From: Escherichia phage kaset
Direction: 5' to 3' (one strand)
Sequence record: PV245935.1
Length of the DNA stretch: 64,000 bases
A program made the translations under genes and the position numbers. The notes beneath the pieces are model-generated. The model did no database searches, had not been told where the DNA came from, and was given only the letters and a program-made list of their open reading frames with translations. Within the stretch, counting starts at the first letter, position 1. Every line of letters starts with the position of its first letter. Below, piece after piece: positions 1,457 to 62,966 of the stretch.

Positions 1457-2377
1457 ATGACGATACCAATCAGCACGTTTCCTCTATCTGGACAAACGCC
1501 AGTATTACCTGCTGTATATGCGAACGGTTTGGCGATTGTTTCAGAATTTACATCCGATAAAAATTTGATTGTTCCATTGAGTCCGCCATTGGCATCTGGA
1601 TACAATTCAGTCGGACAATTCTTTATGATCGGTAATGATGGAGATTCTACCAGCAAACCGAATCTGACCCTTTCAGTCCCCAAAATGAACATAACAGACG
1701 TGCAGACTGGTTTGACTGCATCTACAATCACCATCGCTTTTGGAGAAGCAGTGATTATAGGCATGGAGTCTGGAGGGTCCAAGAATGCTGTCGCCGTTAA
1801 AGTAGTCAAATCCAGCGGCAACCAATACACATTACCAGCAGCAACGGCTTCTGTTCTTGGCGGAGTCAAAATAGGGAGTGGCATAAGCGTTGCAGGTGAC
1901 GGTACAATTAGCGTGACTCAATACTCATTACCGATTGCATCAGCATCAACCTTGGGTGGCATAAAGGTAGGTACGACACTATCAATTGATGGTTCTGGAG
2001 TTCTCAATGCTGCTGCAAGCACTGTGCAGAACGCAAGCAACAGCGTAAGCAATCCTCCGACAACTCTGGTGAATCTGGCAACCTTAAACCTGCCTGCAGG
2101 GAAATGGCTTGTGACAGCAAGTCAGTTGACTGTTGCGACAGAAGGAGTTCAAGCGAATACCGGAATTACAGTCAAACTGTCAACAAGTAATTCAGATATT
2201 ACGGATGATGCATTTACGATGTCAGCTGGCATTCGGGCTGCAGGTCGTTTCGGCGGCAATATTCCAACAAAAATAATTACTCTTGCCGCGCCTGGCAACG
2301 TGTATCTAAACTATCAATGCACAGACGCATTGACATCTACCGTTTACGGACAGATCACCGCAATTAAGTTGAACTAA
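1457..2377 (+). CDS. Structural protein with internal Gly/Ser-rich repeats (decoration or fiber-like)
   Basis: RBS GAGG before ATG; repeated segments LGGVKIGSGISVAGDGTISV / LGGIKVGTTLSIDGSGVL. Confidence 0.6.
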   Translation: MTIPISTFPLSGQTPVLPAVYANGLAIVSEFTSDKNLIVPLSPPLASGYNSVGQFFMIGNDGDSTSKPNLTLSVPKMNITDVQTGLTASTITIAFGEAVIIGMESGGSKNAVAVKVVKSSGNQYTLPAATASVLGGVKIGSGISVAGDGTISVTQYSLPIASASTLGGIKVGTTLSIDGSGVLNAAASTVQNASNSVSNPPTTLVNLATLNLPAGKWLVTASQLTVATEGVQANTGITVKLSTSNSDITDDAFTMSAGIRAAGRFGGNIPTKIITLAAPGNVYLNYQCTDALTSTVYGQITAIKLN

Positions 2378-2387
2378 AGAGGAAGTT

Positions 2388-2525
2388 ATGCAAAAGATTA
2401 TTCAGTCACGTTACGTTAAAGTGCGAAATATTAATTGCAACTCTTTGCTTTCTTGGAAATGGGCTGTTTACGACTCGATGCTGATTGGCGTTTTAGTTGC
2501 TGGAGTGCTTTTTAATATTCACTGA
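2388..2525 (+). CDS. Small hydrophobic protein (45 aa), hypothetical
   Basis: Strong RBS AAGAGGAAG 4-11 nt before ATG; C-terminal hydrophobic stretch MLIGVLVAGVLF; below the ORF-track size cutoff. Confidence 0.4.
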   Translation: MQKIIQSRYVKVRNINCNSLLSWKWAVYDSMLIGVLVAGVLFNIH

Positions 2526-2539
2526 ATCGCCTGGCAGTG

Positions 2540-2835
2540 GATTGCCGCAGGATTTTACGCGTATAATGACGTATCATCCGTATCAAGTAAGTAGTTGTTT
2601 TCAAAAGAATCTTACGGATGATACGGATGATACGCGTTGCCGCGATACTTTATAGGAATTCAAATAAATTAATTTAAAATTATATATCTAATTTAATTTT
2701 ATTTTTTTATAAACTCTTATATATGAAAAGTATCCGTATCATCCGTATCATCCGTAGCACACCAGTGATAGCGCGGCTTATACACCGATACGGATAAAAA
2801 TACGCCTCATTTTATCCGTATCATCCGTATCACAC
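2540..2835. repeat. Iteron-like module A: 9-mer ATCCGTATC arrays in direct and inverted orientation around an AT-rich core
   Basis: Direct copies at 2576-2584, 2732-2756, 2814-2831; inverted TACGGATGA x2 at 2613-2630; AT-rich 2646-2730; homologous to 54601-54890. Confidence 0.7.
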
Positions 2836-2889
2836 TAATTAAGGCGCGGCTATATCGGTTGTTATACATATTCAAACCATAATTATTGT

Positions 2890-2918
2890 TTGCCTAAGTT
2901 TTTTTCATTAGATATAAT
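2890..2918 (+). promoter_or_regulatory. Sigma70-like promoter candidate upstream of the scaffold/capsid genes
   Basis: -35 TTGCCT (2890-2895), 17 bp spacer, -10 TATAAT (2913-2918); ATG at 2942. Confidence 0.4.
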
Positions 2919-2941
2919 ACACAATACTTATTTGAGGGTGG

Positions 2942-4363
2942 ATGCGAATGCAAACGGCACGCGAAATTGACAAAAATGGATTCTTGACGATTGTGGGTTG
3001 TCCCATTTCGTCATTTGGCATTTTTGATTATTCTGCAGGTCAGGTTGGACTTGATGGTGATCCGAATCGCATCGTAAAAGTTTATCGCCCAGAGTCAGCG
3101 GTGAAAGACCCCGAAGCGATAGATTCATTCAAAAATATCCCTTTCATCGACAATCACGAAATGCTTTCTGGATTCGAAGGTGATGAGGATAACACGGCAC
3201 CCGAAGAGTATGGCGTTGATGGAGTTCTAACTGGCAATGTTTATTATGACAAGCCATGGATGCGCGGCGACCTTAAAGTTTTTAGCCGTCGTCTGAAGAA
3301 AGCCATCGATTCTGGAAAGGTTGACTTGTCTTTGGGCTATGACTGTGAATTCATCATACAGTCTGGAGAGTTTGACGGGCAGCCGTATGAAGTGGTACAG
3401 ACAACTCTTCGCGGCAACCACATTGCTCTCGTGGACGTTGGTCGAGTACCAGGTGCACGGGTGCTGGATGGTCGTTGCTTTGACCATCTTTGTTTGACGA
3501 CTGTAACACCATCCAACGAGGATTTAGATATGCCAAAACCGTTAAAAGGTAAAGCGCGTGATAATGCTGTTGAACAGCTGAAATCACTGATCCCTGCGCT
3601 CGAACAATTTCTGAATGAAGAGAGCACCGAAGCTGCTCATCAGGATGAAGTTGAAGTGAAAGCAGAAGAGAAGGATTCAACCGAAGAACGTGAAGAAGTG
3701 ATGGTTGATCCAGAAGTCAAAGCAGAAGCTGAAGAGACTCCAGAAGGTGAAGAGAAGTTTGAAGTTGAAACTGAATCTCACGCTGGTGGCGAGCTTCCGC
3801 AACTGATCAGCCAAATCGAAGCACTTATTGCAAAACTGAAAGGTGGCGCGGTAGGTGATGAAGAAGAAGTTGAAGCCGAAGTCAAAGACGAAGAAGAAGT
3901 TGAAGTCAAGGCTGAAGATGTATCACCTTGCGACAAAGCTGAAGATGTGGTTAGCGGCCTGCAAAACAGCAACGTAAAGGGGGCTTCGGTCGAAAAAGAT
4001 GACAAACCGACAAAAGCGGCGAAAGCGTCGCCAGGTCCAGCAAAAGGGGAACACTCAATGGCATCTGATTCAGCAGTTGCTGCTTTCTACGCTGATTCTG
4101 CTCGTAAGAATAGCCTCTACCAGCGCCTGTCTAAAGTTGTTGGTGCCTTTGATCATGCAACTATGGACTCCAAGTCCGTAGCGAAATATGGCGCTAAAAA
4201 GTTAGGCTTGAAGTGCGTTGATGGCGCTGAGTTTGACGTTGTGGATAACTATCTGCGCGGCGTTGAACACGGTCAAAAACAGCGTGTAGTCGCAAAACAA
4301 AAGGCCGCTGCGGATTCTGCAGCAACTGACGAAGCATTTGAAGCTTGGTTGAAAGGGGAATAA
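2942..4363 (+). CDS. Putative scaffolding / prohead assembly protein with acidic repeat region
   Basis: Lies immediately upstream of the capsid candidate; long E/V/K-rich acidic repeats (EEVEAEVKDEEEVEVKAED); RBS GAGGG. Confidence 0.55.
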   Translation: MRMQTAREIDKNGFLTIVGCPISSFGIFDYSAGQVGLDGDPNRIVKVYRPESAVKDPEAIDSFKNIPFIDNHEMLSGFEGDEDNTAPEEYGVDGVLTGNVYYDKPWMRGDLKVFSRRLKKAIDSGKVDLSLGYDCEFIIQSGEFDGQPYEVVQTTLRGNHIALVDVGRVPGARVLDGRCFDHLCLTTVTPSNEDLDMPKPLKGKARDNAVEQLKSLIPALEQFLNEESTEAAHQDEVEVKAEEKDSTEEREEVMVDPEVKAEAEETPEGEEKFEVETESHAGGELPQLISQIEALIAKLKGGAVGDEEEVEAEVKDEEEVEVKAEDVSPCDKAEDVVSGLQNSNVKGASVEKDDKPTKAAKASPGPAKGEHSMASDSAVAAFYADSARKNSLYQRLSKVVGAFDHATMDSKSVAKYGAKKLGLKCVDGAEFDVVDNYLRGVEHGQKQRVVAKQKAAADSAATDEAFEAWLKGE

Positions 4364-12687: not shown

Positions 12688-13247
12688 TGGACTTTGTTTC
12701 GATTCTGCTTTCTGGTCAATCTCTGACCATAACGAATGAGTCGACAGGGCTTCCTGTCTGGACAAGGCTTTCTCCAGTGTCTGCAGAAATAACATCACCA
12801 GCAGAAACTACTCAATTTCCACTTGCTGGAACGGCGATGCAGGTGGTGGAAGTATCAAGCACATCCTCAGTAAGCAATTTACAGGCGGCAAAAGTAATAA
12901 TGCCAGCGCACATGGCGCTAAACGTAATTTGCAACGACCAATCGACTATTGAAAACATAATTAATACATTCGACAATGATGAAGTCACATTTTCGATAAC
13001 TTCTCGAAGCATAATTGCAAGCAAAATGTCGATGTCTGATGTCGAAATAACTCAGTCAGAAGAAAACCTGAATGGAGTCTCAATTGTAATAACATTTGAA
13101 CAGACGTCATTTAGTATTCAAGGAAGCTTTGACCCTAAACAGTCCGCAGATGAATCGTCAAATGGCGTGGCTATTAAAGAGCCAGTCAGTTTGACTACAA
13201 CTGTGAGTTCGTTATATAATAAAATAAAATCAACAGTAGGAATATAA
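12687..13247 (+). CDS. Hypothetical tail protein (possible tail assembly chaperone)
   Basis: Position just upstream of tape measure gene. Confidence 0.45.
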   Translation: MDFVSILLSGQSLTITNESTGLPVWTRLSPVSAEITSPAETTQFPLAGTAMQVVEVSSTSSVSNLQAAKVIMPAHMALNVICNDQSTIENIINTFDNDEVTFSITSRSIIASKMSMSDVEITQSEENLNGVSIVITFEQTSFSIQGSFDPKQSADESSNGVAIKEPVSLTTTVSSLYNKIKSTVGI

Positions 13248-13248
13248 A

Positions 13249-13665
13249 ATGAAGATCACCAATAAACAAACTGGTCGCAAAGTAGAAATTAAAATCAGCA
13301 AAATGACTGCGATGGAAGGTTGGAACATACAGCGACGATTCATCGAATTTGCGATGTCAAAAGACCCTGCCTTTCGTTCAGAATATACAATGGAAGTATT
13401 AAGCTTTGCGAAGGTTGAACTTGATGTCGGGCAAGAAATTCCTCTGAGCACTGGCGCACTTATTGACAACCATCTTGGCGACTGGGAAAACTTGAAATTG
13501 GTTTTCGAAGCGGTGTTGATGGAAAACGGAATCAACCCAGAGACTCACGCTGAACGTGAAGGATACTGGGAACAAGCTGGCGGCGAAATGGCTGCAGCAT
13601 TTATTGGCGAATCGATGCGATTAATCGCGCCATTCCTCAGCGGCGAGACTCCAAACAAGGGGTAA
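13249..13665 (+). CDS. Hypothetical tail protein (possible tail assembly chaperone)
   Basis: Position just upstream of tape measure gene. Confidence 0.45.
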   Translation: MKITNKQTGRKVEIKISKMTAMEGWNIQRRFIEFAMSKDPAFRSEYTMEVLSFAKVELDVGQEIPLSTGALIDNHLGDWENLKLVFEAVLMENGINPETHAEREGYWEQAGGEMAAAFIGESMRLIAPFLSGETPNKG

Positions 13666-15853: not shown

Positions 15854-16726
15854 TTGAAAAAGAGAATCCTTAAAGTCACCTTATCCATGCCGGATGGCAC
15901 AAGCCAAGTGCTTGATGAAGGGTTGATGCTTAGATGCCGAATCAAAAAGGCAGCACTTTCCGTTCAGAATAAGGCCACGATTGAAGTTGCAGGATTGACA
16001 GGGTACTTGAGAGAGTACCTGCTTTCTAACTTCACGGCATTCAACAAACGTCTGCGCGACCAAGGCCAGCTGGCGGCGAACTACGTCAACGTGACTATTG
16101 AAGCTGGATACAGAGAGGGGAGCGTAATCAGCAGCAACTTGGTATACAAGGGACAGGTGACGACGGTGGAGATAACAGCGCCGCCGCCGAATATCGTCAT
16201 CAGAATCACGTGTTATACAAACCAAATAAACAGAACTAAGTTCATAACTCAAGCCGCGCCATCCAACCCGACTTTCAAAGAGTTTGTGGAATGGTCTGCA
16301 AAACAAATGGACATCGACACTGTTATTTGCGACACGTCGATTAATAATCAGCGCCTTGTGAATCCAGGAAGAACGACATATGTTGCTGCTGCGCTGCTGC
16401 TTGAGATCCAGAACTATCAACGCAACTCAATCGCGGCATACATTGATGACGATACGTTAATTGTTAAGGATAAAGACAAAATTCTAAATCCAGACCAGAT
16501 TACAGTCATTGAGGAATTTGTCGGAATACCGATGTGGAACGAGTGGGGTGCAGACTTCACTTGTATGTATAACGCAGATTTGAAGCTTGCACAAGGTGTT
16601 AAATTCAAATCAGTCTTAAACCCAAGCTTGAACGACACCACATTTGTCATCATGCAACTTGAATATGATTTAGCGAGTCGTGATGATATATTTACGGTGA
16701 CGGGCGGCGTTGCACCATCGGCATAA
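15854..16726 (+). CDS. Tail/baseplate protein, hypothetical
   Basis: ORF following tape measure gene; TTG start in track. Confidence 0.5.
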   Translation: MKKRILKVTLSMPDGTSQVLDEGLMLRCRIKKAALSVQNKATIEVAGLTGYLREYLLSNFTAFNKRLRDQGQLAANYVNVTIEAGYREGSVISSNLVYKGQVTTVEITAPPPNIVIRITCYTNQINRTKFITQAAPSNPTFKEFVEWSAKQMDIDTVICDTSINNQRLVNPGRTTYVAAALLLEIQNYQRNSIAAYIDDDTLIVKDKDKILNPDQITVIEEFVGIPMWNEWGADFTCMYNADLKLAQGVKFKSVLNPSLNDTTFVIMQLEYDLASRDDIFTVTGGVAPSA

Positions 16727-16728
16727 AT

Positions 16729-17250
16729 ATGAGAAAGAATAAAATAATCGACTTGTTTGGCGTAACTTATGAAATTCATCAATTCAGCGCAATAGATGCA
16801 TTTGAAATGGTCGATGACATAAGTATATTAACCCCACTTGAATTATTGAGTGAATGTTATGTAATCAAATACGACGGGTCCAAAGTAAGGCTTAATTCTG
16901 AAAAAGTAATTAGCGAGGAAGTGAAAAGTATTCCTAATCACTTGCCGCCTAATCTTGTGTTGAAAGTATTGATGGAAGCCGTTAAAAAGCACAACTTTGG
17001 ATTCCTTAGCGATTGGAAAAGCACCAAAATTCCAAATAGATTCTTGGCTGATGCACCGACAGTAGAGCCTAATTATCTTGAGCCAATGGTTGCAAGTCTA
17101 ATAAATAACGGCCTTGCATCTTTAAAGGAGTTGGAAGAATACTATTCACTGCGTGATGCATTTGCCATGTTTGATGGTTTAATAGCAAAATCACTTAATG
17201 AAGCCTACTCAAACGAAGCTGCCATTAAAGAATCAAAGTCAAATCGCTAA
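16729..17250 (+). CDS. Tail/baseplate protein, hypothetical
   Basis: ATG start; in baseplate block. Confidence 0.5.
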   Translation: MRKNKIIDLFGVTYEIHQFSAIDAFEMVDDISILTPLELLSECYVIKYDGSKVRLNSEKVISEEVKSIPNHLPPNLVLKVLMEAVKKHNFGFLSDWKSTKIPNRFLADAPTVEPNYLEPMVASLINNGLASLKELEEYYSLRDAFAMFDGLIAKSLNEAYSNEAAIKESKSNR

Positions 17251-28530: not shown

Positions 28531-29088
28531 TTACTTTTTGCTTTTAGGCAAGGTTATTTTAGCTTCTTTATACTCAAAGACGCTAATATCTTCACTGACT
28601 GGATTACCCGCTTCCAGCTGTTCTTTTACGAATGACTTCAGTGTAGCAGAATGAACGCCTTGTTTCAACGTGGCTTCAATACCGTCTTCACGCAGCGCGG
28701 CAACAATCTCTTGCGCTTGCTCGATTTCTTCGCGACCGAACTCAGCCGTGACGCTGGACTTGATCAAGCCGCCGTAACCGTTGTTGACAAGCCAATCGAA
28801 TACTTTCAATTCATTTTCTTTCTTAATTGAAGCATTGACTTTTGACTCGACCTTGATTTTGGTCTTGTCTTCAAGCTTGATTTCGGACACGCCAAGCTCA
28901 TCCATAACGCCAGGAAGCAGAACAGTTTTGATTTCACTGATGCGCTGCTTTTGCATATCAGCTTCATCTTCAAGCTCTGTCAAAGCTTCTTGGCGTTCTG
29001 CCAATTCCGATACTAAGCGCGCAAGGCGCTCTTGGATGCTCTCAGGAGCGACCTGCGGCAAATCATCTTCCCAATTAATATTGCTCAT
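28531..29088 (-). CDS. Hypothetical protein
   Basis: ATG with RBS AAGAAGGT; start codon lies in first copy of a 52-bp tandem repeat. Confidence 0.5.
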   Translation of the reverse strand: MSNINWEDDLPQVAPESIQERLARLVSELAERQEALTELEDEADMQKQRISEIKTVLLPGVMDELGVSEIKLEDKTKIKVESKVNASIKKENELKVFDWLVNNGYGGLIKSSVTAEFGREEIEQAQEIVAALREDGIEATLKQGVHSATLKSFVKEQLEAGNPVSEDISVFEYKEAKITLPKSKK

Positions 29089-29184
29089 ATTTTACCTTCT
29101 TGCATTAGCCCTTCAACACGGGTCATTTGATATTGCTCATATTTTACCTTCTTGCATTAGCCCTTCAACACGGGTCATTTGATA
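29081..29184. repeat. Perfect 52-bp tandem duplication (2 copies) spanning a gene junction
   Basis: TTGCTCATATTTTACCTTCTTGCATTAGCCCTTCAACACGGGTCATTTGATA at 29081-29132 and 29133-29184. Confidence 0.85.
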
Positions 29185-29400
29185 ACGTTCAGGTTTCCAA
29201 GCCGCCAAAGCCTTCTCAGCGCCTTTTAAAGTTTTATATGCCTTGATGCCAGGCATAATGACGGTATTCACCCCAGCACCGTTGCCATAATCAAACTCTT
29301 TTACAACGCGGAACATGCCGTCAATTTCTTTGACCAAAAGACGTTTGAACGCGATTGCGCCAGTAGCTTCATTTTTGTAACGTTCAAGGATGCGTACCAT
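29137..29400 (-). CDS. Hypothetical protein
   Basis: 87 aa ORF; C-terminal codons lie within second copy of the 52-bp repeat. Confidence 0.5.
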   Translation of the reverse strand: MVRILERYKNEATGAIAFKRLLVKEIDGMFRVVKEFDYGNGAGVNTVIMPGIKAYKTLKGAEKALAAWKPERYQMTRVEGLMQEGKI

Positions 29401-44867: not shown

Positions 44868-46538
44868 ATGTCAATTGAACATGACAATCTTCCAGAGGAT
44901 ACAGGTGATGAATTTGGTGCAATCTTTGACGAAATTCAAGATGCTGGTGTTTCAGAAGAAATGCAAGCGGCAGAGCAGCAAGGCACCAGAGCTAAAATAA
45001 GCCTTCAGCACAAGGCTGTTGAGAAAGATGCAGAGCGCATGGAATGCTACGGTGAAGAAGACTTGGTTGAAAGAGCACGTTTGCTCGCCTCACTTCAGGT
45101 AATCAAGTTCCCTCACTACAAACCGACGAAAGATGATTTTGTTCTTCAGGCGGACCGGACGAGTGACATGAACCGTTATGCGGTTTTCGACGCGTTGTTT
45201 GATAAGGGAAGCGGCATCGTCCCATTCCCTCACAAAGATACTTTTCGTGGACGCTTAGTCGACCATCGCGGCGAAACATTCACCGACCGGACATTGGAAG
45301 TCACAGAGATAGTTGCCGCTGTCGACGCAGCAGGTCTGTCCAACCCAAACTCACGTCAGGTCGCTCAATCCTATAAGGAATGGGCCATGCGTTATCAGCG
45401 CGACGACCTGATGGACTTCTTCTACAAGAAGCTGCCTGAATGGGACGGTACTGCGCGCATTGAAAAATACCTTATCGAGCTATTCCGACCGTTCGATACA
45501 GAGTTAAACCGACAAATCGGTGTGTATTTTTGGCTATCGCTCTATAACCGCCTGACCAATCCTGGCTGTCAAGCGCCAATCTCCATTGCGCTCATCGGCG
45601 GCCAGAACGCAGGGAAGAGTTATTTTAGTAAGCTGCTTTGCGAAGCTATTATGAACGACCGCCACGCAACACCGATTCCGTTGAACTTGGCCGCGCAAAA
45701 CTTCAACCCGTTCTTGCGAGCTATTACGGGTCGCTCAATTATCGCGAACGTTGGCGAGATGACAGGCTTTAAAAAGGCTGACATCGAAAACATGAAAGCA
45801 TTCCTGACTAAGACGGAAGATGACCTGGACTTCAAATTTGAAGATACGCAGGTTAAACCACGCCAGTGGATTGCTATCATGGACGGCAACGAATACGCAG
45901 GCATGCAGCGTGACGATACGGGCAACCGTCGTGTGTATCCTATCTTTGTTGGCCAACTCGCCGACAAGGACGGGCAACCGAACTGGTCTAAAGACTTCCA
46001 AGCTGACCTTTCCACTTTGAAAGAAGACGTTTGGCAGCTGATGGCTGAGTGCGCTGCGTGGATGGAGAAGCACGGCGAAGCAGGTTACAACGCCTTTGTT
46101 GGTGAAACATCTCGTATGCTTACTGAGTTCAGTAAGAACGAAATGGAACGTGCGCGCGGCGTTATCCGTGATGAGATGGTCGACAACGACCTTGTTGAAG
46201 TCATCATCACCGCGCCTTATGACCGACATCACAGCGGACGCTGGCACATCACCAGTGGGGCAATCGCTATGGGATTCAGAGCTAAGTGCGGCAAGTCGCC
46301 TTTCTCACGTACCCTTGCGCCGCACATGTCGAAGCTTGGATTTGAGCCTGCAACCTATCGCAACCAGCGTGGCTACTTTACGCCGCTGATTAAGAATGAA
46401 GCAGGGGAATACATTTCTGACTTGATGACCATCTTAGCGTATCTTATTCGCGACGAGTCTGACCCTGAAGATATTGAATTCTTGAAGAAGGTTATTGAAC
46501 GCAAACGTTCTTTAGGAAGAGATAAGGATGAATTCTGA
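44868..46538 (+). CDS. P-loop NTPase, primase-associated (VirE/D5-like helicase candidate)
   Basis: Walker A IGGQNAGKS; 556 aa; downstream of PrimPol gene. Confidence 0.6.
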   Translation: MSIEHDNLPEDTGDEFGAIFDEIQDAGVSEEMQAAEQQGTRAKISLQHKAVEKDAERMECYGEEDLVERARLLASLQVIKFPHYKPTKDDFVLQADRTSDMNRYAVFDALFDKGSGIVPFPHKDTFRGRLVDHRGETFTDRTLEVTEIVAAVDAAGLSNPNSRQVAQSYKEWAMRYQRDDLMDFFYKKLPEWDGTARIEKYLIELFRPFDTELNRQIGVYFWLSLYNRLTNPGCQAPISIALIGGQNAGKSYFSKLLCEAIMNDRHATPIPLNLAAQNFNPFLRAITGRSIIANVGEMTGFKKADIENMKAFLTKTEDDLDFKFEDTQVKPRQWIAIMDGNEYAGMQRDDTGNRRVYPIFVGQLADKDGQPNWSKDFQADLSTLKEDVWQLMAECAAWMEKHGEAGYNAFVGETSRMLTEFSKNEMERARGVIRDEMVDNDLVEVIITAPYDRHHSGRWHITSGAIAMGFRAKCGKSPFSRTLAPHMSKLGFEPATYRNQRGYFTPLIKNEAGEYISDLMTILAYLIRDESDPEDIEFLKKVIERKRSLGRDKDEF

Positions 46539-49195: not shown

Positions 49196-49200
49196 ATATC

Positions 49201-49249
49201 AAAAAGGTGAGCTAAATGCTTGCCTTTTCTTTTATCAATACTTATACTC
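49201..49249 (+). promoter_or_regulatory. Terminator-promoter cassette copy 1
   Basis: Hairpin AAAAAGGTGAGC-TAAAT-GCTTGCCTTTT with U-tract; -35 TTGCCT (49220-49225) overlapping 3' arm; -10 TATACT (49244-49249). Confidence 0.5.
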
Positions 49250-50459: not shown

Positions 50460-50462
50460 TTC

Positions 50463-50509
50463 AAAAAGGTGAGCTAAATGCTTGCCTTTTTATTTGCCTG
50501 TATTATACT
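50463..50509 (+). promoter_or_regulatory. Terminator-promoter cassette copy 2
   Basis: Same hairpin AAAAAGGTGAGCTAAATGCTTGCCTTTTT; TTGCCT then -10 TATACT (50504-50509). Confidence 0.5.
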
Positions 50510-54287: not shown

Positions 54288-54303
54288 TAGTGATTAATGT
54301 TAA

Positions 54304-54328
54304 GAGGGCCAATCGGCCCTTTTTGTTT
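54304..54328 (+). terminator. Rho-independent terminator ending the + strand early gene block
   Basis: AGGGCCAATCGGCCCT hairpin followed by TTTTGTTTG. Confidence 0.6.
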
Positions 54329-54600
54329 GCCTGTTGTTTGTGAGTTTTTATTATCGGATAAAGCGATTGATTTGTGTAAATCTATTAGAGGATGGTGGGC
54401 CGTGAGGATTGTGACGTGAATTTTGTGTCTTGAATATGTGTTCGAATTTGGAAGAATATTGTACTGTGGTGCTGTGGGATTGGAGAGGGAATCACTAGGT
54501 TTTGGGGCGTGTACCGTGGTGTGTGGGCCTGTAGGCTGCGCCGTGTCTGGGATTGCCGCTTGAAATTAAAAAGGAGATATAGTTAGCTGGCTAACCTTAC

Positions 54601-54890
54601 GTATAGAATTTAAGCGTATAATGACGTAAGATTTGGACCTATCCGTAGTTCACTCCACACACTTCTATGGTGCGCCGCGACTGGGTTCAATGGTACATCT
54701 TACGGATGATACGGATGATACGCGTCGCCGCTATACTTTATACAACTTTGAAAAAAACAATTAACTCCATTTTGAATTAATTTAAATTAATTTTTTTCTA
54801 CATCCTCATACTTATACTAAAATTATATTTATACGTATTATCCGTAAGATATAAATAAAAACAAAGACTTGCGGCAATACGGATGATACG
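54601..54890. repeat. Iteron-like module B, homologous to 2540-2835
   Basis: Shared GCGTATAATGACGTA; inverted TACGGATGA x2 at 54689-54706; CGCTATACTTTATA; AT-rich core 54721-54850; further copies at 54826-54834 and 54864-54887. Confidence 0.7.
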
Positions 54891-55047
54891 CCATGATACG
54901 CTTCAGCCAGCCAGCAGCGGCTAAGTCATTGATTTGCATAACAAGCGGCGAAAGGGATGGATTTCTTTTATACGTATCAAACAGTACACCACGCACCACG
55001 GTCCATTATTCATTCAGCACTATGATTTATGTACTTTTACAGCCAAT

Positions 55048-55094
55048 TTGAACATCAATCTGCACTTGAATATAATGTTCATTCATTGTATAAT
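55048..55094 (+). promoter_or_regulatory. Tandem sigma70-like promoter candidates upstream of 55129 gene
   Basis: TTGAAC-17 bp-TATAAT (55071-55076) and TGTATAAT (55086-55093). Confidence 0.4.
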
Positions 55095-55104
55095 TCACAC
55101 TATT

Positions 55105-56584
55105 AATTTGCACTATGGGATTTGCACTATGAGTCAAGATTATGTAGCAATGCCTGAAGACTTTGAAGACCCGCGATTTGCAGAGCATAATCAGGCATTA
55201 TTCGATGAGTTCATTGACCTTGTTATTCAGGGCCATGACATGCGCGCAGCTTTTGCACTAGTATTTGGCATGGAGGTTGCGACCGATAACTACACTGGCC
55301 AGCGAATCCTGTGCACGCAACGCAATCCGTACTACAAGATGCGCTACAAAAAGCGTATGGAAGAGATGCCATTGAAGGAATTGTGGAGCGTAAAGAGTTC
55401 CATCCACAATTTAGTGAAGCTTGTGCGTGATCCAGAAGTCGCGGCATCAGCCAAGCTTAATGCCATTCGTGAACTGAATATCATCTACGGCATCACGATG
55501 ATTGATGAAAACGGCAATAGTAAAATGGGCCGTTCCATGGACGATTTCTACAAGGATTTTGGAGAGGCAGCCAAAGAGGGTGAGCAATTCTCCCGCCACT
55601 AGCCAATTTGCACTATAAAACGGCCCTAGAACACATTTTCTCCACTTCTAGGGCCATCGGTAATACGACGGTGAATGCTGCAACCATAAACGCGTTAGAA
55701 AGTGTATTATTATAAGTCATCTTTTAGTCACTTTACGTAACAATTTACGACCTTCCGCCGTCCAGTCGAACGACTCCACCAGCAGATTTGCACTATAACC
55801 TAAGACGATGCGCCCTTTCTCGTTATCGACCCGCCAACAAGTCTCGAATAGCATTCGATTTGCACTATTAACTATCACCGCAACGCGCGTTGGGTAAGCG
55901 CAATTTGCACTATGGTCGTAAAGGGATAAGGTGCGACCACTTCCGATGGACAACGTAGCGATGAGAATGAGTGTGTTCATAAGCCACCAATTTGCACTAT
56001 GAAAAGCGACCCCGAAGGGCCGCCATTCGATTAGATGATCTGGAAGGTGTAGGATTTGTTGCCGAACTCAAAGTTCAAGCGCCCAGCTTCCTTAAGCTTC
56101 ATACGGAAGCGAATGTGCTTGCTATCCGGTAAGCCCAGCGCGGCGAACGCTACGCGGACCGATTTGAACTCGCCTACACCCTCGACCATAACGCCGTTGC
56201 GCGTAAGACGCTTTTGCGCTACTTCCTTGTTGTCCCAACTTTTTGCAATACCTTCGCTATTCGAACGGCGATGGGAAGGAGTTCCATTTTGCACTACGCA
56301 ATTTGCACTATCGTTTAGGCCGCTCTTAACGAAGGCTTCATACTCTTCGTCGGTCATCGCGTCGAGTTCTTCCTGGGTCGGCTCGGCCTTTTTAACGACC
56401 GCACGCGCCTTATGCGTTTTTACATCGCTGGACACTTCCTCGCGCGGCTTCGCGTCGGGGATGGGCGATTCGTTGGACGGCTCATCGAGCGCGTTTAAGG
56501 ACTCGATTAACGCGATTACGCGAGTCTCGGCGGTACGGCGGTCCGCGAACTTTTTAATCGGCTTCGAACCGGAATTTGCATTAT
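55105..56584 (+). repeat. Dispersed same-strand array of ATTTGCACTAT motifs
   Basis: Copies at 55105, 55120, 55605, 55786, 55858, 55902, 55989, 56300; variants at 56286 and 56573; related AATTTGCAGTACACT at 58462 and 58559. Confidence 0.7.
55129..55602 (+). CDS. Hypothetical protein (candidate regulator; ATTTGCACTAT motifs overlap its start)
   Basis: ATG 55129; track N-terminal extension runs through promoter region and is rejected. Confidence 0.5.
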   Translation: MSQDYVAMPEDFEDPRFAEHNQALFDEFIDLVIQGHDMRAAFALVFGMEVATDNYTGQRILCTQRNPYYKMRYKKRMEEMPLKELWSVKSSIHNLVKLVRDPEVAASAKLNAIRELNIIYGITMIDENGNSKMGRSMDDFYKDFGEAAKEGEQFSRH

Positions 56585-56657
56585 AAAATGCAACGAGGTC
56601 GGCGGTCTTAGTTGCGATAACGTCGCCGCTAGTCGAGAAGCGATTTAAGCTAACCAT
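56031..56657 (-). CDS. Hypothetical protein in CpG-rich block
   Basis: 208 aa ORF; CG-rich codon usage distinct from rest of window. Confidence 0.5.
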   Translation of the reverse strand: MVSLNRFSTSGDVIATKTADLVAFYNANSGSKPIKKFADRRTAETRVIALIESLNALDEPSNESPIPDAKPREEVSSDVKTHKARAVVKKAEPTQEELDAMTDEEYEAFVKSGLNDSANCVVQNGTPSHRRSNSEGIAKSWDNKEVAQKRLTRNGVMVEGVGEFKSVRVAFAALGLPDSKHIRFRMKLKEAGRLNFEFGNKSYTFQII

Positions 56658-56737
56658 AATAAACTCCTATTTGTTAGGGCGCTAGGCGCGAAAGAATTTT
56701 ATTAAAGCGCCGCGCACGACGCTCTAAAAATCCTCTC

Positions 56738-57022
56738 TTACGCTTCGACGAGGGAGAAGGTCTCAAATTCTTCTTCGCCCATAACGAGTAAAATATTACC
56801 GATTTCGACCGCTTCGAAGAAGTATCCGTTAACGTTTACTTCGAAGGCTTCGCGGTCCGATTCCGGTAACGCCGCGTAAAGTTTAAAAGCTTCGGCGACC
56901 GTTACCCCACCCGCTTCGATAGTTTGGTCTACGTTCGCGGCGTAGACTTCGGATAAATTTTGTTTTACGCCGTAGTTCTCGACGATAGCGTTACGGATAG
57001 AAGAAACGTTAAGAATAGCCAT
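56738..57022 (-). CDS. Small protein, member of paralog family (with 57655..57945)
   Basis: Shared pattern SEVYAANVDQTIE / ESVYLSNVDAIIE and VNGYF..EIG / INGFV..EIG. Confidence 0.55.
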   Translation of the reverse strand: MAILNVSSIRNAIVENYGVKQNLSEVYAANVDQTIEAGGVTVAEAFKLYAALPESDREAFEVNVNGYFFEAVEIGNILLVMGEEEFETFSLVEA

Positions 57023-57245
57023 TTTAAACTCCTAGTTGGGAGAGGCGTTAACGACCTATTCGTTAACTCATCCCGTCCCGATATGAGTACATTATAATAT
57101 AGTGTAGAAAAAAGTAAAGCACTTTTTCGATAAAAATGCGATAAATTATTTTATCTTTTTTCTTTACTTCTTCGTACACTCGCGTATACTTGTTTATATC
57201 GAGACGGGCGATGGCCTTTCTTCTACTATCATCGGGAGCTTTATT

Positions 57246-57548
57246 ATGACTACTTTAATCTCTTCCATCCTTACTTACGACGAAGACCGTTTAACCGTTC
57301 GCTCTCTTATCGCCGCCGTTAACGCGGAACTAGAATCTAGCGCCATTAAGGTCCGCGCTTTCGTCTTCGCTAGTCTTTCCTTCGACGAAATTAAATACGC
57401 CGAACGTAGCGCCATCCGCTTCGCGAAGACCGACGACGAAGCCGTTACCCTTATCGAGACGGTTACGCCGCGCGGCGAAGCGTTAATTATCGTCGAGTAT
57501 ATCGACGTAGAAGGCGATAAATCTTATAAATATTTTATCGCAGAATAA
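57246..57548 (+). CDS. Small protein, possible distant paralog; flanked by 16-bp inverted repeats
   Basis: Preceded by promoter-like module; inverted repeats GTAAAGCACTTTTTCG (57114-57129) and CGAAAAAGTGCTTTAC (57549-57564). Confidence 0.5.
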   Translation: MTTLISSILTYDEDRLTVRSLIAAVNAELESSAIKVRAFVFASLSFDEIKYAERSAIRFAKTDDEAVTLIETVTPRGEALIIVEYIDVEGDKSYKYFIAE

Positions 57549-57654
57549 CGAAAAAGTGCTTTACTTCTTCGTACACTAAGACTATACTTATTTATATCGA
57601 GAGGGGAGAGGAAGCGAATAGGTCGCTACCCTCCCGACTAACTAGGAGAATATT

Positions 57655-57945
57655 ATGATCACTTTATCCGCTATCCGTTCCGCTCGCGTCGAAACTTCCG
57701 AAAACTCTAACATATTTGGCGAAACCTTAGAGAGCGTTTATCTCTCTAACGTCGACGCGATTATCGAGTCTATTTATGAGCCGATCAACTTCCTCGACCT
57801 TTACAAGTATCGCGACGAGGACATCGTATCCTGCCGCGTAACGATTAACGGCTTCGTCTATACGATTACCGAAATCGGCGGCGAATATATCGCTGTACCG
57901 CAACTCGGCGGAGAAGTGACTTATTTTAAAATCGTCTCCTTATAA
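57655..57945 (+). CDS. Small protein, member of paralog family (with 56738..57022)
   Basis: RBS AGGAGA; preceded by duplicated promoter-like module. Confidence 0.55.
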   Translation: MITLSAIRSARVETSENSNIFGETLESVYLSNVDAIIESIYEPINFLDLYKYRDEDIVSCRVTINGFVYTITEIGGEYIAVPQLGGEVTYFKIVSL

Positions 57946-57963
57946 TACCCTTCCGTTACTAAT

Positions 57964-57990
57964 AGGCCGCGCTTAGTCGCGGCTTTTCTT
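57964..57990 (+). terminator. Rho-independent terminator candidate
   Basis: GGCCGCG-CTTAGT-CGCGGC hairpin followed by TTTTCTTCG. Confidence 0.5.
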
Positions 57991-58642
57991 CGTCCCTATC
58001 TCGATGCGCTTCTCCGCGAAAACTCCTTTATTCTTCCCTTCGTCGTCTCATAATCTTCTTCGAGATGCTCCTTAGTTCGCATAACGGGTATTACGTTAAA
58101 TGGAGAACATCGCGTAAGTCCTTGTTTTATATAGACACCTATATCGGACCGTTAAGGCGGGTCGCGTAAGTCGTTGTTTTATAAAGGCGCAAAACTTTCC
58201 CTTCGTTCCGAACTAAAACGAGAAATATGCGGACCCTTCGCCCGAAAATAGTACGCATACGAAATTACCGACATCTAAAATAATCCCCGCCTATATTATC
58301 CTACACGCAATCATTAGCCTTCGAATCATTATGCTTCATATTATTATGCATCGAATCATTCGCTTTCGAATTGTAACGCTGGAAACTGTAACGGCGATTG
58401 ATTATTGCGTTCGTGTGGTTTTTAGGGCATGGGTCTTTTGGTGCGTTTTGGTACTTGATGAAATTTGCAGTACACTAATCAAAATATGACACATTTGGTC
58501 CACTAACTTTTCAAAGAAAAAGTCCTAGACAGTACCGTACTATTTTGTGCCCACAGTAAATTTGCAGTACACTCCTGCGCGGCAGGCAAAATAAAGGGCC
58601 GCCACAGCGACCCACGATTCACGGTTAAATCAGCAACACCCA

Positions 58643-59023
58643 CTATTCACTCTTATGGGCATCACCAAAGCCATCCGCAATCTGGCTGATCAATGATTCA
58701 ATGGACACAGTTTTACCAATTGATCGAGCGGTAATAGCAAGCATATTATCAATCAAACCATGATTGGCTGCATATGGTCCAGGTTGTGAATCATCTTCAG
58801 AACAACCAAAAAGCTGATCGCGAAGACTTTCAAGAGAACGCTCAATATTTTCCAGCTTCTCTTCTAAATCGGATTGGCGACGTAAAACCCATGTTAAGTC
58901 TCGGTTGCCGACTTCCAACCCATCAGAATCGCAAGCTGGAACGTCAATTTTGATACTGCCACCAAAGGCCATTCCGCTGCCTTTAGTATACGCGTGGTGA
59001 ATAGAATCATTTTTATTCGACAT
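58643..59023 (-). CDS. Hypothetical protein
   Basis: ATG 59023 preceded by AAAGGT; upstream in-frame ATG at 59038 lacks RBS. Confidence 0.45.
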   Translation of the reverse strand: MSNKNDSIHHAYTKGSGMAFGGSIKIDVPACDSDGLEVGNRDLTWVLRRQSDLEEKLENIERSLESLRDQLFGCSEDDSQPGPYAANHGLIDNMLAITARSIGKTVSIESLISQIADGFGDAHKSE

Positions 59024-59096
59024 ATCATTACCTTTCATGAGGGTGATTAACTTAATTTATAATAAAGCCGCATTGCGCGGCATTCAAATCGGTTTA

Positions 59097-59345
59097 TTAA
59101 TTGTAACGATTGGATTCATCAATCGATACCAACTGTACTGGGTCGCCGGATACGGTCGCACCAATGATGCCCATCTGCTGAAAGAACTCTGAATAAACTT
59201 CCTTCCAGTACTTACGCGCTGCTTTCTGGGCTTGTCCTTTGCGCTTGAAGCTTTTACCTTGAAAGATGAAACGGTCGCTTGCCGCGCGATACTCCACCAC
59301 ACCTTCCAGCCATTGTAAGAATGCTACTGATTCATTTTGATTCAT
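59097..59345 (-). CDS. Hypothetical small protein
   Basis: Track ORF. Confidence 0.45.
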   Translation of the reverse strand: MNQNESVAFLQWLEGVVEYRAASDRFIFQGKSFKRKGQAQKAARKYWKEVYSEFFQQMGIIGATVSGDPVQLVSIDESNRYN

Positions 59346-59352
59346 GTTAACC

Positions 59353-59748
59353 TCAATATTTTAATAAGAAAGCACCCAACCAACTTTCCTCAACCTCGCG
59401 CCCAGTAGCCACACGGTCGGTCTTTGCTATGGGTCTGGATTCGCCGCAGGGCAATCCGTCTTGCAATTGTGTACTATTGCCAATTCTCACCATAACCTTT
59501 CCATCAGGGTCGATATAAGCACGGCAACCCATGATTTCGAGTCGTTGTAGACACTGGCGAATCGTTTTCAGCCTTTCACCGGACCGGATAGAGCGCAGTC
59601 GCGACCTCTGACCGTTCTTGTTCACTGTACGCTTAACAACCGGAATCTCATTGGTGCGTTGCGCTTTCGGTCGGTAGTATGCTTCTTCGCCAGGAGTCGC
59701 ACCTGGCGTCAATTCGCGCTTGAGCGCCTTTTCAATATCGATGATCAT
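59353..59748 (-). CDS. Hypothetical basic protein
   Basis: Track ORF, Arg/Lys-rich. Confidence 0.45.
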   Translation of the reverse strand: MIIDIEKALKRELTPGATPGEEAYYRPKAQRTNEIPVVKRTVNKNGQRSRLRSIRSGERLKTIRQCLQRLEIMGCRAYIDPDGKVMVRIGNSTQLQDGLPCGESRPIAKTDRVATGREVEESWLGAFLLKY

Positions 59749-62624: not shown

Positions 62625-62966
62625 TTAATTTCTTTTGAGAGGAATATGACGGTTACTGTCATTATTTGGTTTAATAATGAGCATAAAAACGATTAGAAAG
62701 ATGATGGCTGATATACTTAATTCAATCAGCGCGGCCTGAGATATGGATTGATCTTCATGATATTGCTTTTGCATTTCCGCTTTCTTCTGAGCGCAAACTT
62801 CAGGTGATATATAATCGCCTTTTGAGTTGCCATAATAAATCTCGCCATTCTCAGAAATAAGTCTGCCGCAAATATCCGTATCGGCCTTTGCGCTTGACAT
62901 CATAATAACGGTGCCGATGATAGCAGCGATTGTCCAGATTAGCAGTTGTGATAAAGTGTTGTTCAT
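62625..62966 (-). CDS. Membrane protein, hypothetical
   Basis: N-terminal and C-terminal hydrophobic segments (LLIWTIAAIIGTVIMM; AIIFLIVFMLII). Confidence 0.5.
   Translation of the reverse strand: MNNTLSQLLIWTIAAIIGTVIMMSSAKADTDICGRLISENGEIYYGNSKGDYISPEVCAQKKAEMQKQYHEDQSISQAALIELSISAIIFLIVFMLIIKPNNDSNRHIPLKRN

Follow-up and report, generated by a model that had tools for sequence, protein, structure and literature searches.

A pair of related repeat modules in Wifcevirus, one spanning the genome end and one lying among the head genes

Packaging sites, paired sites and the phages of this group

The pac site of phage P1 carries clusters of a hexanucleotide at both ends of a 162-bp site, is cleaved in its middle and includes an IHF site; P1 packages by headful and is not known to have an internal paralogue of pac. 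Replication origins are present in two copies in SPP1 (oriL and oriR) and in P4 (ori and crr), and T7 has phiOR besides its primary origin, with phiOR and phiOL located beside the terminal repeat. In herpesviruses, the 'a' sequence (pac1/pac2) is a packaging and cleavage signal that is found at the terminus and, as an inverted copy, inside the genome.

The pac sites of SPP1 and SF6 (pacL-pacC-pacR, with direct repeats in boxes A, B, and C) lie upstream of terS, and their repeats flank the initial cut (PMC4737164, PMC9611059). In the twin ring model of pac synapsis in T4, TerS double rings appose two homologous pac sequences (PMC10893049). The structure of the E217 TerS has been solved, a pac-less, T4-like strategy has been suggested, and it has been proposed that the C-terminal helix of this TerS enters another ring of TerS (PMC9611059). 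Our search of the literature on two pac sites returned T4 and SPP1 background only.

The locus described herein belongs to Wifcevirus, a genus of E. coli and Shigella myoviruses with genomes of 66–72 kb, of which Pbunavirus is a distant relative (PMC11990801). Terminal repeats have already been published for Wifcevirus, and so has an AT-rich pac region for Pbunavirus: repeats of ~3.7 kb were described for WFH and WFC by Korf et al. (PMC6563267), the Mansfield record was opened at the PhageTerm repeat boundary (PMC6753283), and the PhageTerm pac site of a Pbunavirus was assigned to AT-rich sequence (PMC6521218). For this group, which includes Pseudomonas therapy phages, the packaging signal is still undefined, and Wifceviruses are being built synthetically (PMC11074155). 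The anatomy of the region, its cross-genus conservation and its internal paralogue were not found described in the papers and records that we searched.

Two related modules in the Wifcevirus genome

We analyzed a window of 64,000 nucleotides, the whole of the stretch taken from Escherichia phage kaset (PV245935.1), to which the coordinates below refer unless another genome is named. The window is Wifcevirus DNA, 99.8% identical to phage WFH. A megablast search with 2300–3100 returned 28 phage records, Wifcevirus without exception, with identities of 99.8–99.9% (WFH, FEC19, Ro157lw) or 94–97% (WFC clade). The element within this segment, module A, is kept at one position in all 28 records. In the annotated relatives, a portal gene, a Mu-F-like gene and a head-fibre-like gene lie 5' of it; on its 3' side, the DUF2213 protease gene is followed by the cement and major capsid genes. 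The noncoding gap that it fills is 416 bp long (2526–2941) if the 45-aa ORF at 2388–2525 is real, and several records annotate this ORF; the gap of ~560 bp given in an initial annotation of this DNA holds only if the ORF is ignored. The features of module A are as follows.

2526–2941, no strand: module A, the whole noncoding gap from the 45-aa ORF (2388–2525) to the DUF2213 prohead protease gene (2942–4363)
2544–2548, plus strand: outer left GCCGC pentamer, within GGATTGCCGC, which recurs in module B at 54550
2560–2587, plus strand: three direct units, CGTATAATGA CGTATCATC CGTATCAAG
2613–2634, minus strand: left inverted array TACGGATGATACGGATGATACG, 2.5 units, the left arm of a perfect 22-nt inverted repeat
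2639–2643, plus strand: inner left GCCGC pentamer, abutting the left inverted array
2654–2731, no strand: AT-rich core of 78 bp, 90% A+T, holding AATTAATTTAAA, which is common to the module B core
2732–2758, plus strand: right direct array ATCCGTATC ATCCGTATC ATCCGTAGC, the right arm of the inverted repeat
2773–2777, plus strand: inner right GCGGC pentamer
2786–2806, minus strand: inverted units CGATACGGATAAAAATACGCC
2814–2834, plus strand: direct array ATCCGTATC ATCCGTATC ACA
2846–2850, plus strand: outer right GCGGC pentamer
2890–2918, plus strand: sigma-70-like promoter TTGCCT-17-TATAAT, 10/12, before the protease, cement and major capsid genes and outside the arrays

The array of 9-mers that the initial annotation had noticed is borne out. 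Nine exact copies of ATCCGTATC are present in the window, while 0.37 are expected, and none of 100 shuffles reached nine. They start at 2576, 2732, 2741, 2814, 2823, and 62874 on the plus strand and at 2620, 2787, and 54708 on the minus strand. Seven of them thus fall within 2576–2831; the copy at 54708 is part of a second module, module B, and that at 62874 is isolated. For the looser unit CGTAT[CAT]AT, clusters were found in the two modules only, in the window as well as in the complete genome of the relative Bas101. The best form of the unit is CGTATCATC, with CGTATAATGA, CGTATCAAG, and CGTAGCACA as variants. The direct array at 2814–2834 is taken in by a 38-nt duplication (84%; 2741–2778 with 2814–2851), and in Bas101 exactly one 9-nt unit is missing from the left inverted array (2613–2634).

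A perfect 22-nt inverted repeat (2613–2634/2735–2756) surrounds the core, and module A as a single strand is predicted to form a long hairpin (fold z = -7.0). We rejected a plain palindrome or cruciform as the full explanation of the module: the left side runs array-pentamer-core and the right side core-array-pentamer, with no mirror symmetry; the 22-nt arms fold nonetheless. Two further candidates were rejected. A promoter in GCGTATAATGACGTA has no -35 at usable spacing, and its TATAAT is a variant repeat unit (CGTATAATGA/CGTATCATC). A small ORF at 2723–2797 (MKSIRIIRIIRSTPVIARLIHRYG) has no ribosome-binding site, is unannotated in all records and results from the 9-nt period, with which it is in frame. 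Inside module A, the only promoter match is a single weak one (9/12). Rfam gave no matches for the whole window at gathering thresholds, no copy of the array was found in 5,426 E. coli genomes, and multi-copy matches to a 16-mer of the array were found in Wifcevirus contigs and nowhere else. Single 16-mer matches in unrelated viral contigs were at the level expected by chance.

Module B lies ~52 kb from module A in the window and, as the initial annotation had it, has the same architecture, an AT-rich core surrounded by short repeats in direct and inverted orientation. The features of module B and its surroundings are as follows.

44868–46538: VapE-type SF3 primase-helicase gene
54550–54960, no strand: module B, the paralogue of module A
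54555, 54674, and 54727: GCCGC pentamers
54701–54722: inverted array
54728–54832: AT core
54768/54769, no strand: left physical genome end, AACTCC/ATTTTG, inside the AT core
54769–58438, no strand: direct terminal repeat unit, 3,670 bp in this genome
54775–54792, no strand: perfect 18-bp palindrome AATTAATTTAAATTAATT, 6 bp inside the genome end
54833–54850: direct units
54871, 54917, and 54945: GCGGC pentamers
54872–54900: inverted units
55048–55094: near-consensus promoters, TTGAAC or TTGAAT-17-TATAAT, before terS
55129–55602, plus strand: terS, small terminase, 157 aa, the first sizeable gene after the cut, 360 bp downstream

The order of elements is alike in the two modules, and the AT cores are 78–105 bp long with 80–90% A+T. 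Calling the two copies near-identical, as had been done, overstates their likeness: they have in common a block of 66 nt at 85% identity (2609–2674 with 54697–54762), a few short words (the 15-mer GCGTATAATGACGTA, the 10-mers GGATTGCCGC and ATACTTTATA and the core 12-mer AATTAATTTAAA) and the same layout. Three features are found in module B only: a match to the IHF consensus (54922–54934), the sequence AACTCCATTTT at the cut, which is absent from module A, and a left tract that is G-rich and C-poor with a right tract that is C-rich and G-poor. These two tracts recur in module B of all three genera described below.

In the WFH, WFC, and Mansfield records, the direct terminal repeat of 3.7 kb has its left boundary at the genome end in module B. 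Position 1 of WFH (ATTTTGAATTAATTT...) corresponds to 54769, the first base of the WFC record is homologous to it, and the Mansfield record starts at 54769 and ends at 54768. The repeat in WFH comes to 3,701 bp, as calculated from gene 1 (at 202) and gene 99 (at 67784) of its record, which are equal. WFH and Mansfield also coincide to the nucleotide at the right repeat boundary (...GGGCATGGGTCTTT/T, at 58438). Since these two records agree on the boundary nucleotides, both genome ends are precise. A third module at the right boundary was considered and rejected, as there are no 9-mer arrays there, and no genome end in module A was found in any record or paper searched. It had been feared that module A might be an artefact of assembling the terminal repeat. 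Its presence at the same internal place in 28/28 records removes this concern, and module B is unique sequence that spans the repeat boundary and is not produced by the repeat.

The gene that follows the cut was identified as terS by a phmmer match of the window ORF 55129–55599 to PDB 7UXE, 'Small terminase' (E = 9e-33), and the same gene is called terS with HHpred in the Mansfield record. The 7UXE entry is the E217 TerS decamer (PMC9611059).

Module B is ~98% conserved right of the cut in six Wifcevirus lineages, while left of the cut it is a mosaic between lineages and mostly unalignable. Despite this mosaic flank, TACGGATGATACGGAT is kept in 6/6 lineages, and the divergent left flanks bear fresh motif copies (CGTATCATGACGTATCAT-type); AATTAACTCCATTTT at the cut is invariant in the six. 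Module A mirrors this step at the left edge of its core, with 10–27 variable columns per 100 upstream and 0–4 from the core onward. Across five lineages, its core and right half show no variation or almost none. Modules A and B are paralogues, and module A is a real, strongly non-random and conserved noncoding element.

The same pair in other genera

The pair recurs in two further genera. In Serratia phage MTx (Myosmarvirus), whose protease is 54% identical to that of Wifcevirus, an A-type module lies upstream of the protease gene (16700–17000 in MTx), and a B-type module spans the PhageTerm-annotated repeat boundary (68480–68621/1–130), directly upstream of the terS homologue. The two MTx modules share blocks that include ACTTTTCGAAAAATGCAAACGTAAA and TTTCAAATCTCGGTAGCTATAAGGAA, and their repeats are unrelated to those of Wifcevirus. 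In Pseudomonas phage 14-1 (Pbunavirus), the modules are at 12771–13321 and ~59130–59530 and have one 17-mer in common; their motif is AAATTACCG, and all five copies of AAATTACC in the genome are inside them. The module sequences of the three genera cannot be aligned with each other, while the pair is at the same two places in each. Thus, the layout and the pair are conserved across three genera while the sequence differs, which points to shared sequence-specific binding factors that co-evolve with their sites. Module B adjoins terS in MTx, in 14-1 and in five further lineages.

This distribution bears on the possibility that module A has no function of its own and is a pac relic kept by gene conversion, a recombination hot spot at a cruciform, a MITE-type element or an assembly artefact. 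The hairpin of single-stranded module A (z = -7.0) would suit such a reading, as would the sharp divergence step at the left core edge of both modules, which is as at recombinogenic sites. A relic is hard to square with a pair that is fixed at two positions in three genera with unalignable modules, and the (near-)invariance of the module A core and right half in five lineages tells against it as well. For a mobile element, the array would be expected elsewhere; it is missing from the E. coli genomes, is multi-copy in Wifcevirus contigs alone and has a fixed position in 28 genomes, and an artefact is at odds with its presence in 28/28 records. We consider a functionless module A very improbable.

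Cutting at module B has a parallel in Pbunavirus. In JG024, a start at 59,376 ± 5 was found for 36 of 161 long reads, and a pac fragment maps there (Ipoutcha et al., PMC10913387). This position falls in module B of JG024, flanked by the last GCCGC of the left side and the first GCGGC of the right side, where its placement in the GenBank record assumes that the numbering of the paper equals that of GenBank within 2 bp.

What the modules of the three genera have in common is the orientation of a pentamer. In the six modules of Wifcevirus, MTx, and 14-1, all 15 GCCGC copies are left of the core and all 17 GCGGC copies are right of it; the genome density of each pentamer is ~2–3 per kb. The same partition is found upstream of terS in the five further lineages (L038, L040, L042, L043, and L044), with occasional exceptions in GC-rich Pbunavirus sequence. 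The bases that flank the pentamers covary at times, as in 14-1 module A (CTACTGCCGCG...CGCGGCAGTAG) and 14-1 module B (CTTAGTGCCGC...GCGGCACTAAG). The distance from the cut to the first right-hand GCGGC downstream is 102 bp in Wifcevirus, 104 bp in MTx and ~112 bp in JG024. The spacings between GCGGC copies (20–73 bp) show no constant helical phase.

An array of transcription factor binding sites had been one of the initial proposals, and it survives as a minor rival, with the promoters located outside the arrays. Under such transcriptional control, the part shared by the modules would consist of operators that co-control the terS operon (module B) and the protease, cement and capsid operon (module A), and the cut site would be specific to module B. 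Each module follows a terminator-like hairpin and precedes a near-consensus sigma-70-type promoter that reads rightward into morphogenesis genes, and the modules of MTx and 14-1 are arranged likewise. Co-control would account for A and B evolving together, and the extra features of module B could then be the true pac determinants. The arrays, however, are 44–100 bp or more upstream of the promoters and do not overlap them, the search for promoters gave none within the arrays and none that reads leftward, and a one-directional promoter does not need two-sided symmetry around an AT core of 78–105 bp. No candidate regulator was identified, and the steady spacing of ~102–112 bp from the cut to GCGGC ties the shared pentamers to the cut. 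We hold transcriptional control to be improbable.

Origin or packaging site, and comparison with known systems

A different role is raised by the neighbor of module B on its 5' side. A VapE helicase gene lies directly before it in Pbunavirus, Myosmarvirus, L040, and L043, and the authors of PMC6521218 had raised a replication origin for the AT-rich pac region. Both modules could be replication origins, in which a VapE-type helicase would bind the pentamers and iterons and melt the core and a RepB-type primase would prime both strands; the packaging cut would then lie coincidentally in one origin or be recruited to it. The phage does encode a RepB-type primase. In architecture, the iteron arrays in both orientations around a core of 80–90% A+T are those of an origin, the pentamers form a dyad around the core, and GCGGC is oriented on each template strand in a way that might favor priming toward the core.

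The adjacency to an initiator gene does not extend to the whole group. Module A adjoins no such gene, and in Wifcevirus and L038 module B stays beside terS although the VapE gene is no longer adjacent, that is, the module is kept with terS and not with the helicase gene. The more distant protease-gene relatives L018 and L019/L020 have no module A. At module A, GC skew does not turn from negative to positive in Bas101, MTx or 14-1, and at module B the switch is positive-to-negative and terminus-like, with the cumulative maximum there in Bas101. Skew is weak evidence, because in phages it follows transcription. Neither module has a DnaA box (TTATCCACA with at most one mismatch), which origins with a phage initiator do not require. 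The sole direct functional evidence at module B concerns DNA ends, not initiation. Of the functions first proposed for the arrays, protein binding is of the right class, and an origin finds no positive support. The origin remains a serious alternative to the terminase reading, even though we regard it as unlikely; if true, these would be the first mapped origins of this phage group.

Module B holds the left genome end, adjoins terS and corresponds to the read-start site of Pbunavirus, which points to packaging recognition. We tentatively favor, at somewhat short of an even chance, a reading of both modules as assembly sites of one recognition complex, most simply terminase, with module B as the cleaved pac and left-end site and module A as its uncut internal paralogue. 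Each module spans ~300–400 bp and comprises a core of at least 80% A+T, outward-facing GCGGC on both sides and lineage-specific repeats in both orientations, which here are the 9-mer CGTATCATC/ATCCGTATC. The same sequence-specific complex, built on TerS, would form on both modules. Module B would be the working packaging-initiation site, where terminase would cut at 54768/54769 in the AT core and produce the left genome end. Module A is probably not a major cutting site, because the invariant AACTCCATTTT is missing there. It may instead be a second docking site for the factors of module B, and might pair with module B, in the manner of the synapsis of two TerS rings put forward for T4, or alternatively couple terminase occupancy to the neighboring head-gene operon. 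We infer, then, that the binding protein is the terminase recognition complex and that module A is an uncut docking site for synapsis or head-operon coupling.

The two modules share the features of a pac site unequally. Repeats flank the cleavage region, or its counterpart, in both, as 9-mer arrays and oriented pentamers. Adjacency to terS is seen for module B, while module A and terS are ~52 kb apart in the window. Coincidence with a cut or genome end is seen for module B in Wifcevirus, MTx, and JG024. A packaging role of module A is something that we purely infer.

In favor of packaging are the arrays, which exceed chance by a wide margin and lie in the two modules only; the genome end in module B, with terS 360 bp on, and its parallels in MTx and Pbunavirus; and the partition of the pentamers, the steady distance from cut to GCGGC and the staying of the module with terS. 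To these are added the arrays retained or re-created in the mosaic left flank of module B, and the precedents of the SPP1 pac layout (PMC4737164) and the apposed pac sites of T4 (PMC10893049). Against it stand the distance of 52 kb between module A and terS and the behavior of recombinant E217 TerS, the closest solved homologue, which showed no appreciable binding in vitro to the DNA used in that assay (review, PMC9611059). Furthermore, a dyad of oriented pentamers with an AT core looks equally like a bidirectional origin of an SF3 helicase; both modules have a terminator-like site before them and a strong sigma-70-like promoter after them, and regulation would explain the paralogy too; and the flanks, the IHF site and the cut sequence found in module B only could be the true terminase determinants, with the shared part serving another role. 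To explanations other than the four considered, we leave a small share.

A bolder version of the packaging reading, which we put forward as a doubtful proposition, is a two-site packaging signal in Pbunavirus-like myoviruses (Pbunavirus, Wifcevirus, Myosmarvirus): a never-cut twin located before the prohead protease gene and bound by TerS decamers would have to pair with the true pac and left-end module ~16–20 kb away. By pairing, the two sites would permit the initiating cut or link it to the expression of head genes. TerS would make its conserved contact with the oriented GCGGC, and specificity would come from the lineage-specific 8–9-mers. If so, the pair would provide a natural example, defined by sequence, of the twin-ring pac synapsis, for which T4 alone has been argued so far.

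The analysis offers a testable, conserved DNA target for this group, consisting of oriented GCGGC, lineage repeats and an AT core, with the cut ~100–110 bp from the first right pentamer, and a full second copy of the target inside the head-gene cluster in three genera. It bears on the design of rebootable or engineered genomes, in which one must decide where it is safe to open or edit, on predictions of transduction and on how TerS rings recognize DNA.

Each of the known systems is matched in part. As with the herpesvirus 'a' sequence, a packaging and cleavage signal would be present at the terminus and inside the genome; neither the proteins nor the sequences are related, the internal copy is direct in the present case, and there is no sign of segment inversion. 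The two-copy origins are matched by two copies per genome with repeats in both orientations at an AT-rich stretch, one of them adjoining the terminal repeat and, in most relatives, near a primase-helicase gene. Unlike such origins, the modules have no support from skew or DnaA boxes, module B follows terS and not the helicase, and the direct evidence is of DNA ends.

With P1, the modules share clusters of a short motif on both sides of a central cleavage region, and module B has a match to the IHF consensus; the motif here is another one, and no methylation control is evident. Module B agrees with the pac site of SPP1 and SF6 in its position, its cut, its repeats and its noncoding region of a few hundred bp. 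The differences are the inverted as well as direct arrays, the oriented GCGGC and the core of 80–90% A+T. In addition, Wifcevirus makes exact 3.7-kb terminal repeats, in contrast to the headful permuted ends of SPP1, and has a full second copy 16 kb inside its genome; we know of no counterpart to such an internal second pac copy in SPP1. T4 lacks both a unique pac site and defined ends, and the homologous sequences of T4 are intragenic, whereas here the modules are noncoding and only one of them is cut. The likeness to T4 lies in two homologous candidate terminase-binding sequences per genome, and we speculate that TerS might bring modules A and B together in a synapsis.

Repeats within the terminal repeat and at its right boundary

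The terminal repeat (54769-58438) carries a family of repeats of about 18-23 nt, comprising CCAATTTGCACTATAAAA and its variants, which spans 55110-56588 and lies on and around the small terminase gene terS and the neighbouring small genes. These repeats, which may be early promoters or operators, occur at the following positions inside the terminal repeat:

55110
55596
55776
55987
56291
56571

Farther to the right, two longer repeats are associated with adjacent ORFs. A 33-nt inverted repeat (88% identity; 57100-57132 and 57546-57578) encloses a 100-aa ORF at 57246-57548, while the copies of a 27-nt direct repeat (89% identity; 57185-57211 and 57583-57609) lie ahead of this ORF and of the next one, 57655-57945, respectively. 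Together, the repeats of 57100-57609 look like a duplicated gene-start cassette within the terminal repeat.

A non-coding stretch of about 700 bp (57946-58642) extends across the right-hand limit of the terminal repeat, at 58438, and may hold the signal for cutting the right end. No 9-mer arrays were found within this non-coding region. Two other sequences occur twice in it: TCGCGTAAGTCCTTGTTTTATATAG, at 58110 and 58162, and AAATTTGCAGTACAC, at about 58461 and 58558 and reported as one copy per side of the boundary.

Repeats elsewhere in the window

Three further repeats were recorded:

29072-29175, 52-bp tandem duplication (96% identical) at the start of a 185-aa minus-strand ORF, located between 28531-29088 and 29137-29400
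49199-49233 and 50461-50495, 35-nt direct repeat TCAAAAAGGTGAGCTAAATGCTTGCCTTTTCTTTT (94%) among small early-region ORFs
3644-3916, imperfect repeats of 30 nt, acidic in character (GAAGAAGTTGAAG...), located within the C-terminal half of the gene for the DUF2213 protease

The two copies of TCAAAAAGGTGAGCTAAATGCTTGCCTTTTCTTTT may represent a terminator or a regulatory element that has been repeated. The protease segment is of low complexity and rich in Glu, Val and Lys.

Surroundings of module B

Module B is the 9-mer repeat module whose AT-rich core holds the left genome end (the cut, 54768|54769). The stretch between the last right-arm gene and this module (54288-54673) is highly mosaic, as it is in the relatives L004-L007, and the mosaicism is seen even between the window and OZ035737, which are 99.9% identical elsewhere. 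The annotations of Bas98-101 place several tiny CDSs across module B, and these are probably spurious.

Across module B and its paralogue, module A, a single IHF-consensus match was found (AATCAATGACTTA, 54922-54934, minus strand). It adjoins the GCGGC at 54917, and the surrounding stretch is invariant in six lineages. The whole window has 10 such matches, compared with 4.4 expected.

A strand-biased outer shell surrounds module B only, and none is present at module A. The shell is kept in three genera, represented by Wifcevirus, Serratia phage MTx and Pseudomonas phage 14-1:

Strand-biased tracts, left and right of module B
Window: 54340-54580; about 54970-55060
MTx: 68280-68400; 110-300
14-1: 58900-59080; 59590-59740

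The left tract, at a distance of roughly 250-430 bp from the cut, is G-rich and C-poor (17-26 G versus 3-12 C per 60 nt). The right tract is C-rich and G-poor, weakly so in Wifcevirus and extremely so in MTx and 14-1, where counts reach 32 C versus 2 G per 60 nt. The shell could be a packaging determinant specific to module B, or a sequence resembling a Rho-utilisation site.
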